Below are positions 2,324-11,165 of a stretch of DNA of 37,543 nt, in pieces (positions within the stretch are counted from its first letter, which is position 1; the number at the start of each line of letters is the position of its first letter). Below the pieces are notes generated by a model. The model worked only from the letters and a program-made list of their open reading frames with translations, was not told the origin of the DNA and did not search any database. Source of the DNA: a bacterium. Lineage in GTDB: Bacteria; Krumholzibacteriota; Krumholzibacteriia; LZORAL124-64-63. The DNA lies in contig JANOEP010000073.1 in the NCBI GenBank assembly GCA_031441465.1, forward strand, positions 1 to 37,543. Direction: 5' to 3'. The translations under genes were made by a program, and so were the position numbers.

Positions 2324-2573
2324 TTCAGGGCTTCTTTTCGATGGAGTCGCCAACAGTATGATGTACATGAATGGTCTCAACCGTACCTCACGGTACATTT
2401 TGAATACGACCGATGACGCGGACGCCTTCGGATGAGTCGCTGCAACTCGTTGAAAACAATTGCGTTGGATGGGGTTCCCCGACGGGTGGGTCCGCCCGGC
2501 AGTCATGGGCAGGCTCCTTGCATGGCTAGCCCGAAACGCGCTCCGCTCAACCCGCACCGGAAGGACCGTCATA

Positions 2574-3425
2574 ATGACCCGCCGCACCCCCACCGCCTGG
2601 ATCACCCTGCTCGCCCTGTCCTTGATGCTGGCCGGCTGCGGCGACGACCCCGTCACTCCCGCCGACACCTACGCGACCGCCGACGCCGACGCTGCGGGCA
2701 TCGTCGCGGCCGACATCGCGAACGACAACGGCGGCATGACCGACCAGATCGCCGACCTGTCCGCGGCCGTGGGCGGGCTGGACGCCGACAAGGCACTCCC
2801 GGGTCCCCGCTTCCACGACGCCGTCTACGACGAGTTGACCGGCACTTGGACGCTCACGGTCGAGCGCGAGCGCGGCGATTCCGAGGGCACGCCCTACGCG
2901 GCCATCACGCGGGTGTACACGCTGCGCTTCCTGGACGCCGTGGGCCAGCCCCAGCAGTTCCGCGTCGTGGGGGGGGACACCGCGCGCACGGTCGAGTTCA
3001 ACATCGTCTCGGGTACCGGCACCCACCGCACGCGGCACTTCGAGCAGAACCTGGACGCGCTGTCGGCCGCCTTCGTGGTCACCGGCGTGAACACGGACCT
3101 GCTGACGGTCAACGGCGCCTACAGCCGCGACGCTTCGAACCGGTTCGAGACCCCGCGATTCGTGCGCACCCTGGCCGGCGAGTTCGACGCCCAGCTGATC
3201 GACGTGACCGTCCCGCGCGGCGCCGGCCACGACTTCAGCCAGGCCGTGTCGGGCACCATGACCGGCACCTACGTCGCCGACATCACCGTCGAGCGCGGCG
3301 AGGACTACAGCGAACGCCACATCGAACGCTCGTTCACGATCACCTTCGGCGAGGGCGAAGCGTCGATCAACCTGAACGGGCATCACTACGGCGCCCACAT
3401 GAACACGGGCGAACTCAACGACTGA
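2574..3425 (+). CDS. Hypothetical lipoprotein
   Basis: AAGGA RBS. MTRRTPTAWITLLALSLMLAG-C has a LAGC lipobox. Mature part is beta-rich. Confidence 0.8.
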   Translation: MTRRTPTAWITLLALSLMLAGCGDDPVTPADTYATADADAAGIVAADIANDNGGMTDQIADLSAAVGGLDADKALPGPRFHDAVYDELTGTWTLTVERERGDSEGTPYAAITRVYTLRFLDAVGQPQQFRVVGGDTARTVEFNIVSGTGTHRTRHFEQNLDALSAAFVVTGVNTDLLTVNGAYSRDASNRFETPRFVRTLAGEFDAQLIDVTVPRGAGHDFSQAVSGTMTGTYVADITVERGEDYSERHIERSFTITFGEGEASINLNGHHYGAHMNTGELND

Positions 3426-3451
3426 TCGAGTCCGAATTCTCGCCCGTAGCC

Positions 3452-3482
3452 GAGGCCGGCGGATCGCGAATCCGCCGGCCTC
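3452..3482 (+). terminator. Strong hairpin after the lipoprotein gene (terminator or stabiliser)
   Basis: GAGGCCGGCGGAT-CGCGA-ATCCGCCGGCCTC, a perfect 13-bp stem, but no U-tract. Confidence 0.45.
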
Positions 3483-3538
3483 AACTCATGCCGGTTGTGG
3501 TAGACTCGATGTTGCTCGCACACGCAGGGGAGGCCGGG

Positions 3539-5752
3539 TTGCGCTCATTTCATTCGTCGCTCTGTGCCGTGGTCGCGGCCTGTTTCGTCGCGCCGCTCGC
3601 CGCCGCCGCGCCCCCGCCGATCCCCCTGCAGACCGCCTTCGAGTCGGCGCCCTCCCTGAACGGCTACGACCGCTACCTCGAACTCGAGACCGGCCGCGTC
3701 TACACCGGCGGCCTGATGGTCGGCACGACCTGGGATGAGGACCGCACGCGGTTCCAGGAGGCCGAACTGGGCCTCGACGTGATGATCGCGGGCAACGGCG
3801 CGATCCTCGACCTCGAGGGCGAGCAGATCTGCATCGCGTTCTGCACGAACCGCCTGGACATCCAGGACTGCATCGTCCTGAACGGCGGCGTGCGCTTCGT
3901 CGGCGACAACAGCGTCGACGTGCGCCGCGTCCCGGAGGGATCGGTGCGCTACTGCACGTTCTACCGGCCCGAGGAGTACGCGGTGCGCCTGATGGGCGCC
4001 GGCGCCGGCGTGCTGTGCGAGCGCAACCTCGTGGTCGATCCCGTCGACGTCGGCCAGGACGTGATGATCTGGACCGGCATCACCGGCAACAACCTGCCGA
4101 CGGGGCTGGCCTTCGGCCTGTCCATCCAGACGGGTGCCTTCGGTCTGCCCGACGTCCGCGACAACTGGACGTACCACACCGACCCCCGGGCGAACGAGGA
4201 CCCGCTGCGCCACTTCGGCTTCCTCTGAGAATACAGCTGAGCGACTCCCACCCCGTGGGACGATGCCGGTTCGGCACCGCACAACAACATCCTCGGACTC
4301 GACCCGGGACTTCGCGATCCCGAGCGCGGCGATTTCCACCCGCAGAACGCGCCCCTGTACGGCTCGCGCATCGTGCCGGCGGCGGCCGAAGTCCGCGACG
4401 TGCGCCCCGTTACTGCGGCGATCACGCCGGCTCCGGCGCGCCCCATGTCGGAGACCGTCGCCGGCGACATCACCGAAGACACGCTGTGGGACGCGGCCTC
4501 GATCCTCGTCACCTCGAACGTGACGATCCGCGACGGCGCCGTCCTGAGCGTCGCCCCCGGCGTGACGGTCCGCTTCGCCGGCTACTTCGGCCTGCTCGTA
4601 CGCGACGGCGCCCTGCAGGCGCACGGCACGCCCCAGCTTCCGGTCGTCTGGACCACCGCCGATCCCGGCGCCTTCGACGCGGGCCAGGACACCGCCGGCT
4701 GCTGGAACGGGATCACCTTCCTGAACGTCCCGGCCGCGAACCCGGCCTCGTTCCTGCGCGGCTGCGTCCTGGAGTACGCCAAGGCGGTGCCCGGCCTCGG
4801 TCTCGACAACGGCGCGCCGCGCGTGGGCGGGCAGTGCTTCGACGGTGCCGGCGGCGCGCTGCGCGTCGTGGGTTCCTCCCGGCTCGAAGTCTCCGGCTGC
4901 GTCCTGCGCCACAACTGCGCCGACCGCGGCGGCGCGCTGGCCGTGCACTACGGCGCCGCGCCGCTGGTCGTCAACACGCTGATGCACGACAACGTTGCGT
5001 GGAGCCGCGCCGGGGCCGTCTTCGCCGGCTACTGCTTCCCCCGTTTCGTGCACGACACCGTGATCGACAACCGCGTCATCAACCCGGAGATCTTCGACCG
5101 CACGGCCGGCGGCATCGACCACTTCCACAGCCGGCCCCGTTACATCGGCTGCGTGATCTACGGCAACGAGACCAACCACCACGACCAGTACCAGATCCTC
5201 GAACCGCGGGCCTTCCACGTCAGGTACTGCGACGTCCAGGATTACGGCGAGGGGCTCGGCGGGATGGACCTGGACCCGCTGTTCCGCCCGGCGGTCCACG
5301 GACCCGGCGACCTGGGCGTGGGCTCGCCCTGCCGCGACGCGGGGGATTTCGCCGCGGCGTCGTCCTGGTTGCCTGAGTTCGATCTCGCCGGGCGGTCCCG
5401 CCTGCTGGGGGCGCAGGTGGACCTGGGCTGCTACGAGTTCATGGCGGCCACGGCGGTCGACGAGCCCGCGCTAGGACAGGCGGCGACCCTGGTCGCCCTG
5501 CCCAATCCGGCCAACCCCTCCACGACGGTGCAGTGGCGGCTCGCCCATTCCGGGCGCGTCCGTCTGGCCATCCACGATCTCGCCGGCCGGCTCGTGCGGG
5601 TCCTGCTGGATGGGGAGCTGGACGCCGGAGCGCATGCGGCGCGCTGGGACGGATCCGACGCCGGCGGTCGCCGGGTCGCCGCCGGCTCCTACGTGGCCAC
5701 AATCACGGACACGAGCGGGATGAACTCAGTGAAAATTCTATTGGTGCCTTGA
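3539..5752 (+). CDS. Candidate secreted selenoprotein (737 aa, U230-E-Y-S-U234): parallel beta-helix/pectin-lyase-like domains plus FlgD-Ig C-terminal domain
   Basis: GGGAGG RBS, TTG start and signal peptide. A single frame is interrupted only by TGA 4226-4228 and TGA 4238-4240. The 44 codons after them encode NNILGLDPGLRDPERGDFHP and run into ORF 4373..5752, which lacks its own signal peptide. C-terminus PNPANP...WDGSDAGG...KILLVP. Confidence 0.7.
4246..4279 (+). promoter_or_regulatory. Putative bacterial SECIS hairpin(s) 3' of the two UGA codons
   Basis: TCCCAC-CCC-GTGGGA (4246-4260) and CGATGCCG-GTT-CGGCACCG (4261-4279). The second loop starts with G and lies 28 nt after the second UGA. 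Confidence 0.5.
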
Positions 5753-6031: not shown

Positions 6032-6820
6032 ATGAGGCTCAAGCCGCTGTTGACCGTGGCGCTGCTCGTCGTGAGCGCGCCGATCGTCGAGGCCGAGGTC
6101 GTGAACAAGGTCGTGACCTACGAGCACGACGGCGTCGCGCTGGAAGGCTATCTGGCTTGGGACGACGCGCTAGCGGGGCCCCGACCCGGCGTCCTGGTCG
6201 TGCACCAGTGGTTGGGCCTGGGCGACAACGAGCGTCGACGGGCCGACCTGCTGGCGGAACTGGGTTATGTCGCCCTGGCGGCCGACGTCTACGGCCGGGG
6301 CGTGCGACCCCGGGACACCGCCGAGGCCCGCGAGCAGGCGGGCAAGTACTACGGGGACCGCCCTCTGTTCCGGGGCCGCCTGGCCGCCGGCCTGGCCGAA
6401 CTGAAGCGGCAGCCCCTGGTCGACGCCGCGCGCACGGCGGCCGTCGGCTACTGCTTTGGCGGCGGCGGTGTGCTGGAGTTGGCCCGTTCGGGCGCCGATC
6501 TTGCGGGTGTGGTCAGCTTCCACGGGAGCCTCGACACGACCCTGCCGGCCGCCGCCGGCGGCGTGCGCGCCAAGGTGCTGGTCTGCCACGGCGCGGTCGA
6601 CCCCTACGTCAAGCCGGAGGCGGTGCAGGGGTTCCTCGCGGAGATGGAAGCCGCGGGCGTCGATTACCAGCTCGTCATGTATGCGGGCGCCGTCCACGCC
6701 TTCACCCAGCGGGACGCCGGCGACGATCCCAGCCGCGGCGCCGCCTACGACGCCGAGGCCGACCGCCGTTCCTGGCGGGCGATGCGGGTCTTCTTCGAGG
6801 AGATCTTCGCCCGGAAATGA
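6032..6820 (+). CDS. Dienelactone hydrolase family protein (secreted)
   Basis: GYCFGG nucleophile motif, VSFHGSL, HGAVDP, HAFT, AYDAEADRRSW. GGAGG RBS and signal peptide. Confidence 0.93.
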   Translation: MRLKPLLTVALLVVSAPIVEAEVVNKVVTYEHDGVALEGYLAWDDALAGPRPGVLVVHQWLGLGDNERRRADLLAELGYVALAADVYGRGVRPRDTAEAREQAGKYYGDRPLFRGRLAAGLAELKRQPLVDAARTAAVGYCFGGGGVLELARSGADLAGVVSFHGSLDTTLPAAAGGVRAKVLVCHGAVDPYVKPEAVQGFLAEMEAAGVDYQLVMYAGAVHAFTQRDAGDDPSRGAAYDAEADRRSWRAMRVFFEEIFARK

Positions 6821-6943
6821 GTCGCCCCTTCCCGTCCGGTGACAAACGGACGTTTCCCGTGGGCCGGGTAGGACTTATCTTGGGCGCCGGCTCACCGCCG
6901 GCGCTGTTGCCGGGGGAGCGGTCCACGTCGTGGCGAGGTGTTT

Positions 6944-7897
6944 GTGGAAGTGACGTCCGTGGGAACCCCGGCGCTCTGGTTCGGCTTCATCGGGGCCGTG
7001 CTGGTGATGCTGGCGTTGGACCTCGGCGTGTTCAACCGCCGGGCCCACGTGATCCGCATCCGCGAGGCGCTGGTCTGGTCGGTCGTCTGGACCGTCGTCG
7101 CGCTGCTGTTCAACGCCTGGATCTGGCACCGCTTCGGCTCGGTCCGCGGGCTGGAGTTCATGACCGGCTACCTGCTCGAAAGAGCGCTCTCGGTCGACAA
7201 CCTGTTCGTCTTCATCGTGCTGTTCTCGTTCTTCGCCGTGCCGGCGAATCTCCATCACCGCGTCCTGTACTGGGGCATCCTCGGCGCCCTGATCATGCGG
7301 GCCCTGTTCATCGTGGCCGGCGCCGCGCTGATCCACCAGTTCCATTGGATCATCTACGTATTCGGCGTGTTCCTGGTCTACACCGGCATCAAGCTGCTGC
7401 TGCACCGCGAGGGCGAGGTCCACCCCGAACGCAACCCCGTGTTCAAAGCCTTCCGCCGCGTGGTCCCGCTCACGTCCGACTACCGAGGCACCAGCTTCAT
7501 CGTCAAGGAAGGCGGCCGGTGGCTGGCCACGCCGCTGCTCATGGTGCTGGTCGTGATCGAGGCGACGGACGTCGTGTTCGCCGTCGATTCGATCCCCGCC
7601 ATCTTCGCGATCACCACCGACCCCTTCATCGTCTTCACGTCCAACATCTTCGCCATCCTCGGCCTGCGGGCGCTGTATTTCGTGCTCGCCGGGATGATGG
7701 ACCGCTTCCGCTACCTGAAGATCGGCCTCGGCCTCGTGCTCGCGTTCGTCGGGGTCAAGATGCTGCTGGCGGACGCGGTGAAACTGCCCGTCGCCGTCTC
7801 CCTGGGCGTCATCGCCCTGCTGCTCGGCGGATCGATCGCCGCCTCGCTGCTGATCCCGGCCTCCGAGACGCGCGAAGGGCCGCCCCCGGCGCCTTGA
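6944..7897 (+). CDS. TerC/Alx family membrane protein
   Basis: GYLLERALSVDNLFVF, TDVVFAVDSIPAIFAITTDPFIVFTSNIFAILGLRALYF. Start is GTG 6944 (GAGGT RBS) or 6938. Confidence 0.93.
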   Translation: MEVTSVGTPALWFGFIGAVLVMLALDLGVFNRRAHVIRIREALVWSVVWTVVALLFNAWIWHRFGSVRGLEFMTGYLLERALSVDNLFVFIVLFSFFAVPANLHHRVLYWGILGALIMRALFIVAGAALIHQFHWIIYVFGVFLVYTGIKLLLHREGEVHPERNPVFKAFRRVVPLTSDYRGTSFIVKEGGRWLATPLLMVLVVIEATDVVFAVDSIPAIFAITTDPFIVFTSNIFAILGLRALYFVLAGMMDRFRYLKIGLGLVLAFVGVKMLLADAVKLPVAVSLGVIALLLGGSIAASLLIPASETREGPPPAP

Positions 7898-9680: not shown

Positions 9681-11165
9681 TCAGCCGGCGCCCGCGGGGG
9701 TCGCCGGCGGTTTGTGGACGTAACCGAGCGACTCCAGGAGCCGGATGTCGGACTTGCCGAGGTTCGCGCGGTCGCCCGCCGCTCCCTTCCCCAGGGGCGA
9801 GTCCGGGTCGAAGGTCGCCCGCAGCCGGCCGGTCAATCGCGCCGTCTCGTCGGGGTGTTCGACCGACACGTCCCGTGTCTCGCCAGGATCGGCTGCGAGG
9901 TCGTAGAGCGCGGTCCGGTCCCGTCCTTCCTCCCGGAACAGCATCAACTTCCAGGGCCAGGCGACGAGCGTCTTGCAGAAGTGCTCGGGATCGGAACCCT
10001 GCTCGGCCAGCAGGTCGCGGTGCGGCGCCACGGCGTTACCCATGAGCAAGCCGGCCAACGATCTGCCGTCCAGAGTATCGGGAACGGCGATTCCGGCGAT
10101 TTCCAGGGCGGTCGGCAGGAGGTCCAGGGTGGAGACGGGCGTCTCGACGACGCGGCCAGCGCCGGCGTTGCCGGGCAGCTTGACGATCAGAGGGACGTGG
10201 ATCGTCTCCTGGTAGGGCAGGGAGTGCGTGTAATAGAAGCCGTGTTCGTCGAGGTGTTCGCCGTGGTCGGCGACCACGACGATCAGCATCCGCTCGTACA
10301 ATCCGAGTTCCTTCAGCCTGGTGATCAGCCGGCCCACGTGGTCGTCGGAATACTCGACCTCGGCTGCGTACTGAGCGGCAGGGAACGCCGGATCCGTGAC
10401 GCCGGCGAGCCAGTCGTACATCCCTTTGCTGGCGTTCTCGCCCCTGGCCCCGCCCGCCGCCCGGATCCGCGCGGTGAGCGGCTCGCCCGGCCGGCACTCG
10501 TTGCCCAGGTAGTACTTGCGGTGCCAGGGCGGCGGCGGCGCGTAGGGCGCGTGCGGGTCGAAGTAATGGCTGAAGACGAAGCTGGGTTCGCCGCGGTGCT
10601 GCGCGAAGAAGTCGCCGCTGAGGCGCGTGACGCTGCTTGCCTGGTCCAGTCCCGTGAGATCGGATGCGCGCGGGGGGGGCGAGACGTATCCCTGATCCAT
10701 GCCGAACTGGGCGGTCAGGTAGTTGATCCCCACGAATCCCGCCGTGGCGTAGCCCGCGCGCGCGAGGTGCTCGGCCAGGGTCGTGTGCCGTTCGCTGAGG
10801 AAGTCGCGGTCGCCGCCGACCGCGCCGTGGCGGTAGGGCCGCAGCCCGGTGAAGATCGAGGCGAACGAGGGCAACGTCCACGGCGCCGTCGACAGGCACT
10901 GTTCAAACTTGATGCCGTCTCGCGCCAGGGCGTCCAGGTGGGGAGTCCGCGACGTGCCGCCCGGCCCCGCCGGGCCGACGTGGTCCTCGCGGAGGGTGTC
11001 GATACCGATCAACAGGATGCTCGGTGGGGGTGCGCCGGCGGTAGGGTCGTGTGGCGGCCCGTTCCGCCCGCGGGCCGCCAACAGCACGCCGACTCCGGTG
11101 ATCAACAACAAGTTGCAGAAGATCAAGGCGGCCCGTTGGGCCTTCGGCTTATGTAGTATCAACAT
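9681..11165 (-). CDS. Membrane-anchored sulfatase-like hydrolase (alkaline phosphatase superfamily)
   Basis: IDTLREDH, TPHLDALA, WTLPSFASIFTG, HYFDPHAPY, ADHGE, LYDLAADPGE, LESLGY. N-terminal TM segment. Confidence 0.9.
   Translation of the reverse strand: MLILHKPKAQRAALIFCNLLLITGVGVLLAARGRNGPPHDPTAGAPPPSILLIGIDTLREDHVGPAGPGGTSRTPHLDALARDGIKFEQCLSTAPWTLPSFASIFTGLRPYRHGAVGGDRDFLSERHTTLAEHLARAGYATAGFVGINYLTAQFGMDQGYVSPPPRASDLTGLDQASSVTRLSGDFFAQHRGEPSFVFSHYFDPHAPYAPPPPWHRKYYLGNECRPGEPLTARIRAAGGARGENASKGMYDWLAGVTDPAFPAAQYAAEVEYSDDHVGRLITRLKELGLYERMLIVVVADHGEHLDEHGFYYTHSLPYQETIHVPLIVKLPGNAGAGRVVETPVSTLDLLPTALEIAGIAVPDTLDGRSLAGLLMGNAVAPHRDLLAEQGSDPEHFCKTLVAWPWKLMLFREEGRDRTALYDLAADPGETRDVSVEHPDETARLTGRLRATFDPDSPLGKGAAGDRANLGKSDIRLLESLGYVHKPPATPAGAG

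Follow-up and report, generated by a model that had tools for sequence, protein, structure and literature searches.

We analysed a 37,543-nucleotide (nt) stretch of DNA (the window; GenBank assembly GCA_031441465.1, contig JANOEP010000073.1) and found that positions 3539..5752 of its forward strand very probably are a single gene encoding an exported selenoprotein some 737 residues long, in which two internal UGA codons would be read as selenocysteine (Sec, U) and a third UGA terminates translation. The original prediction, made from the letters of the window, had claimed a single open reading frame (ORF) across two UGA codons, and direct translation placed both where they had been claimed. 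The frame starts at the TTG at 3539 and is open to the stop at 5750-5752, interrupted by the TGA at 4226-4228 (UGA-1) and the TGA at 4238-4240 (UGA-2) only. With TGA read as U, translation gave 737 codons, the predicted length, and the internal TGAs became residues 230 and 234 in the motif L-U-E-Y-S-U (...RHFGFL-U-EYS-U-ATPTPWDDAGSAPHNNILGLDPGLRDPERGDFHP..., the residues after the second U being ATPTPW). The ribosome-binding site ascribed to the first half was also found, as GGGGAGG at 3527-3533 before the TTG. Under translation table 11, the same stretch falls into two pieces, an ORF ending at 4228 and the ORF 4373..5752. The features of the gene are collected in Table 1.

Table 1. Features of the predicted selenoprotein gene (window positions)
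Feature	Position	Strand	Basis or remark
Shine-Dalgarno-like GGGGAGG	3527..3533	+	5 nt upstream of the TTG start; direct sequence reading
Predicted complete selenoprotein gene: 737 codons and terminal TGA stop, two internal Sec-UGA	3539..5752	+	translation with TGA=U; eleven-sequence alignment unbroken end to end
Putative N-terminal signal peptide, residues ~1-24: basic start, hydrophobic Ala/Val/Leu-rich core, Ala run	3539..3610	+	by eye
Predicted Sec-bearing right-handed beta-helix domain, residues ~28-280	3620..4378	+	AlphaFold2 model and VIA-align; without Pfam/NCBIfam family
UGA-1, residue 230, facultative Sec position	4226..4228	+	TGA 15/63, Cys codon 48/63 homologous loci
UGA-2, residue 234, invariant Sec position	4238..4240	+	TGA 62/62 homologous loci; Cys confined to the database proteins P0128 and P0184
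Small hairpin CCCAC-CCC-GUGGG, 3' of UGA-2 and 5' of the SECIS candidate, loop without G	4247..4259	+	RNAfold; fails the consensus bacterial SECIS model
SECIS candidate, stem UGCCG/CGGCA, loop GUU	4264..4276	+	28 nt 3' of UGA-2, 40 nt 3' of UGA-1; consensus-model scan
Cap motif N-N-I-L-G-L-D-P-G-L-R-D-P-E-R-G-D-F-H-P, closes the first beta-helix	4283..4342	+	N250, D255, P256, D260, P261 and D265 invariant
Second beta-rich domain, choice-of-anchor-Q type, residues ~300-640	4436..5458	+	PF13229 below cut-off; NF041518; AlphaFold2
FlgD-Ig-like / T9SS type-A-like C-terminal sorting domain	5486..5749	+	PF13860
Terminal UGA read as stop	5750..5752	+	orthologues stop at the same ...LLVP; TGA closes 48/90 paralogous tags

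One frame, two internal UGA codons

Relatives were collected in two ways. A six-frame search covered the 60 nearest species genomes and the window's own genome (61 in all), and relatives of the N-terminal part were found in at least 12 of the 61. A pattern scan over one genome per species gave 67 loci, 7 of which lie in the same genomes as in the six-frame search, so that the two sets are not independent. Ten relatives from the six-frame search and the window aligned without a break over the entire length, at 38-85% identity, and H225, L229, Y232, P237, W240, A243, P247 and N250 around the two codons were invariant in this eleven-sequence alignment.

The codons at the two positions were counted in 61 loci caught by the first regular expression together with L090, a C...U locus that the expression had missed. 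The contig of L095 ends exactly at the position-1 Cys codon and L099-L102 are cut before the motif, and these stand outside the position-2 count. Position 2 was TGA in all 62 loci that reach the site, while position 1 was TGA in 15 of 63 and a Cys codon in 48. By the submitters' record labels, from which all phylum names used here are taken, the loci belong to Latescibacterota, Krumholzibacteriota, Eisenbacteria, Cloacimonadota, Planctomycetota/Phycisphaerae, Acidobacteriota, Gemmatimonadetes and others, at least seven phyla. In a 1.84-billion-protein library, the full-length relative P0128 has Cys in the two columns of one uninterrupted ORF of 698 aa, and a more distant protein, P0184, reads CCESC at the motif, with Cys at position 2. 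The expectation that homologues would span the gap and show TGA or Cys at the two sites was borne out: conservation is continuous, position 1 is TGA or a Cys codon, and position 2 is TGA. The predicted UxxxU motif holds for the window, which would represent the di-Sec form; as a description of the family it was too narrow, because the first position is Cys in most loci and the motif appears to be [C/U]-x-x-x-U with only the second Sec invariant. The interchange of TGA and Cys at position 1 leaves Sec as the only sensible reading of UGA-1.

The coding sequence continues behind the second codon. In 58 loci the frame past UGA-2 ran on for 215-574 codons before a stop, and in four it reached the end of the contig. 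Within the 34 codons 3' of UGA-2, substitutions numbered 675, 473 and 319 at the third, first and second codon positions, respectively, which is a coding pattern, and purifying selection was detected on both sides of the UGAs.

Public databases hold the gene in pieces, as the original prediction had anticipated for gene callers. A search restricted to lengths of 30-404 aa returned 158 proteins. The 120 listed are 196-291 aa long and cover 69-75% of the query region, indicating that they end at one or other of the TGAs; those that have a name are called 'hypothetical protein'. The 405-1292 aa band contained only one near-full-length protein, plus four second halves of about 503 aa, and on one 4.72-Mb contig a 232-aa and a 504-aa fragment carry adjacent locus tags. 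The gene callers' own reading is thus that of two separate genes, a secreted protein of about 229-233 aa ending at a TGA and a second half translated by coupling or re-initiation. The ~503-aa second halves annotated just after UGA-2 agree with it, as does the GTG, a possible start, that directly follows UGA-2 in 13 of 62 loci. Bacterial Sec insertion is moreover inefficient, and a truncated product is probably made too. However, in the remaining 49 loci UGA-2 is not followed by a start codon, and the distance to the first possible start varies from 0 to 142 codons, with no fixed place, while conservation peaks right behind UGA-2, where no start exists. The second half would also bear a secretion tag without a signal peptide. 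Since TGA interchanges with Cys at position 1 and the Cys/Cys relative P0128 is one ORF, we consider two separate genes very unlikely.

Two stops within 15 nt inside a frame might also mark a pseudogene or assembly errors, to which we give next to no probability. The same codons stand in 62 independent assemblies, the sequence on either side is under purifying selection, and a second DNA run, possibly of the source sample, carries the stretch with 0 other letters. The single frame, the interchange, the open downstream frame and the single ORF of the Cys/Cys form, taken together, are what leads us to exclude independent genes, a pseudogene and assembly error in favour of one continuous selenoprotein gene.

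Both TGAs are also spanned by contigs, about 90% alike, that come from RNA libraries (three runs, two studies: X18 record 1, 3603-4337; X19 record 10, 4027-4704; X20 record 25, 3799-4387). None of the 40 difference rows listed for them falls on the six TGA letters, with 253 further rows outside the listing. The contigs place relatives in RNA libraries and are weak evidence of expression, short of proof of transcription, as DNA may be present.

Two variants were seen among the loci. One related genome has a second copy of the gene (L038, G001:C6:1983-3308 and 3299-4201) whose match lies in two overlapping pieces. Its break near residue 437-439, with both TGAs kept, suggests a frameshift or assembly problem. 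In the Cloacimonadota-labelled L078-L083, L087, L088, L090 and L092, three codons are deleted after the motif, and PQxVSWA replaces PxPWxxAGxAP.

Sec machinery and the candidate insertion element

The genome was checked for Sec genes, as had been suggested, and selA, selB, selD and the tRNA for Sec were all found. SelA scored 362.8 bits, and a SelB-specific winged-helix domain and a tRNA-SeC with anticodon tca are present. The selD gene (G000:C25:35277-36200, L003) has one in-frame TGA of its own (...SAG-U-AAKLG...), by which SelD itself would be a selenoprotein. We propose that these factors would decode the UGAs at 4238-4240 and 4226-4228. Among the 61 related genomes, 59 have selA, and for that reason its co-occurrence there is uninformative. 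The distant carriers labelled Planctomycetaceae, Acidobacteriota, Cloacimonadota, Gemmatimonadetes and Eisenbacteria had selA in 5 of 5 cases, compared with 2 of 14 control genomes.

We then considered whether a suppressor tRNA or an altered genetic code could place Trp, Cys or Gly at the UGAs. Database proteins with W at the two columns (P0002, P0127 and P0149) or with C and W (P0140 and P0152) would fit such read-through. These proteins come from low-GC contigs, and their W residues most likely stand for TGA codons that a gene caller translated with code 4; tblastn of the W-bearing proteins against the loci retrieved only relatives of 36-48%. A metagenome scan built on the short-form alignment caught generic tag-bearing proteins by the pattern NYPNPFNP, and the Sec domain was found in 0 of its 78 loci. 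Against read-through other than by Sec, the residue that alternates with TGA in actual DNA is always Cys (48/63) and never Trp, and all carriers tested have the Sec machinery. In addition, TGA is the commonest stop of the 90 paralogous C-terminal tags in the genome (TGA 48, TAG 30, TAA 12) and closes this gene. TGA being an ordinary stop in the genome and of the gene itself, global recoding is excluded, in line with the earlier remark that many genes of the window end in TGA, and we regard non-Sec read-through as highly unlikely.

A Sec insertion sequence (SECIS) had been expected 3' of the codons, and a SECIS-like hairpin was identified behind the second UGA. The consensus bacterial SECIS, in the portion of the 2026 review that describes it, has an apical loop of 3-9 nt, a stem of 4-16 bp, a G within the first two loop positions (mostly G followed by G/U) and a spacing of 16-37 nt from UGA to loop (PMC13188914). 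Our hairpin scan applied this model and in addition demanded at least 5 contiguous pairs. A model-conforming hairpin followed UGA-2 in 58 of 61 loci, compared with 15,446 of 38,133 (40.5%) control in-frame positions of the same genes. The position and loop of the hairpin followed lineage. In one type, the loop starts 26-28 nt after UGA-2 and reads GUU, GUG or GGUCA; in a second type it starts at 19-20 nt, with GGA or CGGGC loops. In Cloacimonadota-labelled records the loop reads AGUUG and starts 18 nt behind UGA-2; the Ser codon is AGU in all cases shown.

The nucleotides of the hairpin appear to be constrained in their own right. At the loop Gly codon, 41 loci used GGU 27, GGG 12, GGC 1 and GGA 1 times, whereas the background in the same genes is 58% GGC and 10% GGU. 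The closing pair, formed by two wobble positions, varied among 50 distinct sequences as GC 12, CG 7, UA 6, AU 3 and GU 3, and the paired fraction of the five-pair stem was 0.68 versus 0.29-0.50 when the partner was slid by 1-3 nt. The Gly-codon bias and the closing-pair covariation show constraint at the nucleotide level beyond that of the peptide. The hairpin at 4264-4276, which lies within the coding sequence and has the GUU loop, would recruit SelB, and the decoding of UGA-2 would follow the known bacterial scheme. As far as the cited text describes it, the fdhF-type SECIS of E. coli is likewise an in-ORF hairpin with an apical loop of 3-9 nt, G then G/U, and 16-37 nt spacing (PMC13188914); the candidate of the window differs in its short stem (5 bp), its lineage-shifting position and the 40 nt that separate it from UGA-1.

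Fold, C-terminal tag and probable export

The predicted product begins with a putative signal peptide, and the orthologues have a similar N-terminus in the alignment. Residues 1-300 were modelled by AlphaFold2 (AF2) from an alignment of 31 family members. The model (m3752cf432e71) is a right-handed parallel beta-helix with a mean predicted local distance difference test (pLDDT) score of 89 and a predicted template modelling score of 0.85. VIA-align returned 92 chains at Z >= 8, and every one listed is a beta-helix protein. The top match was the PL6 alginate lyase 7dmk_A (Z 13.9, root-mean-square deviation (rmsd) 4.1 A over 196 residues), and pectate lyases, phage tailspikes and the periplasmic NosD (7o0y_A, Z 10.9) were also matched, with 8-16% identity overall. 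The model and these matches agree with the beta-helix that had been proposed from the letters. A match of this kind names a fold and not a function.

The likeness to beta-helix enzymes is one of fold, with Z from 13.9 to 9.4 and rmsd of 3-4 A over 150-196 residues. The low sequence identity sets the family apart, and no PDB entry reached E <= 0.001 in Foldseek. The family profile found nothing significant among PDB sequences (best E 0.11), Pfam and NCBIfam have no family for the Sec domain of the window's protein (PF13229 matched 7 of the 31 family members), and no polysaccharide lyase or glycoside hydrolase family was matched in Pfam, NCBIfam or PDB sequences. Beta-helix enzymes use a lateral groove as the active site, whereas the conserved site of this family would lie at the C-terminal end of the helix. 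The AF2 model puts the Sec pair in a loop straight after the last-rung strand 226-229 and before the cap. The last rung of the first domain reads H225-x4-U230-x-Y232-x-U234 in the window and H-x4-[C/U]-x-Y-x-U across the family. The cap has the conserved consensus N-x4-DP-x-L-x-DP-x2-GDF and ends the first helix in the model, as had been proposed for the linker motif DP.L.D...GDFH.

The second domain is less clearly assigned. PF13229 matched it with E 0.011, below the cut-off. The motif that ends the domain (residues 592-634), the counterpart of the cap motif of the first domain, reached 24.5 bits with the choice_anch_Q model NF041518, whose cut-off is 25. A full-length AF2 model from 11 sequences was poor (mean pLDDT 49) and confident only at about residues 300-520, which are beta-rich, and in the tag. 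Three short homologues of 319-355 aa (P0140, P0149 and P0152) join the Sec domain directly to a tail of the type IX secretion system (T9SS) kind, without the second beta-rich domain. In ten loci labelled Planctomycetota/Phycisphaerae or Acidobacteriota (L054, L056, L059, L067, L070, L073-L075, L098 and L103), homology stops around residue 600-650, and the FlgD-Ig tag would accordingly be missing or replaced. The short forms and the tag-less homologues together mark the Sec-bearing beta-helix as the constant module of the family.

The FlgD tag noted on the second half was recovered by PF13860 (FlgD_ig), which matched residues 670-727 with 37 bits against a cut-off of 27. Counting the last ~85 residues of this protein, 111 such tags occur in the genome. 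The T9SS model TIGR04183 was passed by the homologues P0128 (38.9 bits) and P0140 (40.3 bits). Two T9SS components, SprA and PorU, were searched for in the genome, and SprA was over the cut-off with 470.8 bits summed. With a signal peptide, beta domains and a FlgD-Ig/T9SS-type tag, the product would most likely end up on or outside the cell surface, and we suggest export by T9SS. T9SS type-A cargo and choice-of-anchor-Q proteins (TIGR04183, PF18962, NF041518) have the same layout of signal peptide (putative in the window's protein), beta-helix passenger and Ig-like C-terminal domain of about 80 aa. They differ from the window's protein in that its tag falls under the TIGR04183 cut-off, in its Sec motif, and in the Planctomycetota- and Acidobacteriota-labelled homologues that have no such tag.

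Two side observations concern the tag. With 111 FlgD-Ig/T9SS-like tags, the tagged secretome is very large in relation to the 3.5 Mb of the genome. ARAGORN called a 91-nt tRNA-Arg(gcg) at 5604-5694 (+), inside the tag coding sequence; as it lies in a conserved protein-coding stretch, the call is probably a false positive.

Several points weigh against an exported protein with Sec at both positions. Selenium incorporation at U230 and U234 is a prediction from sequence. Shuffling of synonymous codons revealed no more than a modest excess in folding energy (mean z -0.75; z negative in 45 of 61 loci and positive in 16), as the conserved peptide itself forces GC-rich pairing. The loci compared for the hairpin are related, so that the counts given for it are not probabilities. 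Rfam had no family for 4150-4450 at E <= 10, and the hairpin shifts its position between lineages. The spacing between UGA and SECIS is tight in E. coli. Model-conforming hairpins follow UGA-2, but 0 were found for UGA-1 in the window's genus, where the GUU hairpin, 40 nt off, is outside 16-37 nt; across the family, UGA-1 had a model-conforming hairpin in 8 of the 15 TGA/TGA loci. As to export, the window's tag scored 15.9 bits with TIGR04183 against a cut-off of 23, and a full-length PorU-like gene of the genome scored 403 bits against a cut-off of 420. Finally, no conserved gene neighbour and no enzyme-family match in the Pfam, NCBIfam and PDB searches gives a clue to a substrate.

Possible roles and relation to known selenoproteins

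At position 234, Sec is almost obligatory despite its high encoding cost, and the near-absence of Cys there points to a catalytic rather than a structural need for selenium. An invariant His precedes the first chalcogen by five residues, and the two chalcogen positions flank an aromatic residue. As a role, we tentatively prefer a redox-active selenenylsulfide or diselenide centre on an exported enzyme, although the odds for it are somewhat under even. The same His and aromatic residue could instead belong to a soft-metal or metalloid site formed by H225, U/C230 and U234 (Cu, Hg, Zn, Ni or S/Se species), serving surface capture, sensing or detoxification. The known UxxU double-Sec families are annotated as metal-binding where the review tabulates them (PMC13188914), and the periplasmic NosD is among the fold matches, at fold level only. 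However, that match is generic and there are no metal-handling neighbours, and we place a metal site second, as a somewhat doubtful reading.

A third role would be that of a structural staple, a selenenylsulfide or diselenide that cross-links the end of the beta-helix in reducing, anoxic surroundings. Se-Se and Se-S bonds have a lower redox potential, and a disulfide would open under reducing conditions. The predicted extracellular location would suit a staple, as would the lineages, with records from sediment, sludge and groundwater metagenomes, and the place of the motif at the last rung just ahead of the cap in the AF2 model. Under this role, Cys/Cys would be expected to be tolerated more often in Sec-poor settings, and the invariant His and Tyr resemble a functional site, which makes a staple improbable and the least likely of the three roles.

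The original prediction had called the protein unlike the classical bacterial selenoproteins. It is indeed unusual, but selenoproteins with two closely spaced Sec residues, and others of the outer membrane, have been described before, so far as the available text of PMC13188914 reports them. A table in this 2026 review gives the double-Sec motifs UxxU, UxxxxU and SGUG, and the families named there include the metal-binding UxxU family NF041115, a UxxU FmdB-family protein and the UxxxxU rhodanese/DsbD-like TsoB (PMC13188914, in the part consulted). On that account, they share with the window's gene two in-frame UGAs a few codons apart in one ORF, Cys at the same columns in relatives and, presumably, service by a SECIS structure close downstream. 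The three-residue spacing, the beta-helix fold, the size and the location are different here, and only one position is obligately Sec. There is no sequence relationship either, as NCBIfam, which holds the models of these families, has no hit on the Sec domain.

Among the envelope selenoproteins, the tabulated cases include the TonB-dependent receptor of the FCYXU type (NF049945), the GSU2204/MtrB-like outer-membrane protein (PMC13188914) and a selenobacteriocin (PMC13188914; deep-Sep, PMC12013277). These too are Sec-containing proteins that leave the cytoplasm; as tabulated, they are beta-barrels or small peptides, whereas the window's protein would be a soluble beta-helix with a T9SS-type tag. 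No T9SS-tagged selenoprotein was found in the texts searched, and PMC13188914 contains none of the terms 'UxxxU', 'CxxxU', 'helix', 'T9SS' and 'sorting'. Nor did full-text literature searches, or the available portions of PMC13188914, PMC12013277, PMC13326102 (BSepDB) and PMC9312934, contain a description of such a protein. The family is therefore apparently a widespread selenoprotein family undescribed in the literature searched, a search that had the BSepDB table and some recent papers outside its range.

It is possible, though still speculative, that this is the first T9SS-exported cell-surface selenoenzyme family, with Sec near-obligatory at one helix-end position and one SECIS serving two UGAs 12 nt apart, and that it spans Krumholzibacteriota-, Eisenbacteria-, Cloacimonadota-, Planctomycetota-, Acidobacteriota- and Gemmatimonadota-labelled genomes. 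If so, the 40-nt spacing would imply SelB reloading or a geometry more flexible than in the E. coli model. If selenium is incorporated, the bacterial selenoproteome would gain a new fold together with a new cellular location, a secreted T9SS-tagged beta-helix, and poorly known uncultured phyla of sediments, sludge and groundwater would gain this selenoprotein. The dominance of the Sec form over rare Cys forms would then provide a natural test of the preference for selenium over sulfur, and the UxxxU variants one for the decoding of two UGAs 12 nt apart. Selenoproteins are systematically lost in annotation, and this family shows to what extent, with more than 150 database clusters stored as truncated hypothetical proteins of about 225 aa and the other halves called separately; the motif and the hairpin together make a simple rule for repair.

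The gene neighbourhood adds little to these readings. In an all-against-all ORF comparison of 68 loci, no neighbour was common to more than 7 loci and none was conserved beyond close relatives. Because the neighbours are not shared in other lineages, those of the window are not informative on function. Upstream of the gene, an ORF at 2460-3425 (+) encodes 321 aa with a lipoprotein-like start (...LMLAGCGDD...); it has no Pfam family and is conserved only in close relatives. The other neighbours are a dienelactone hydrolase (6032-6820), a TerC-family membrane protein (6938-7897), a sulfatase on the reverse strand (9681-11165) and an ORF with a weak PAS domain (222-956).

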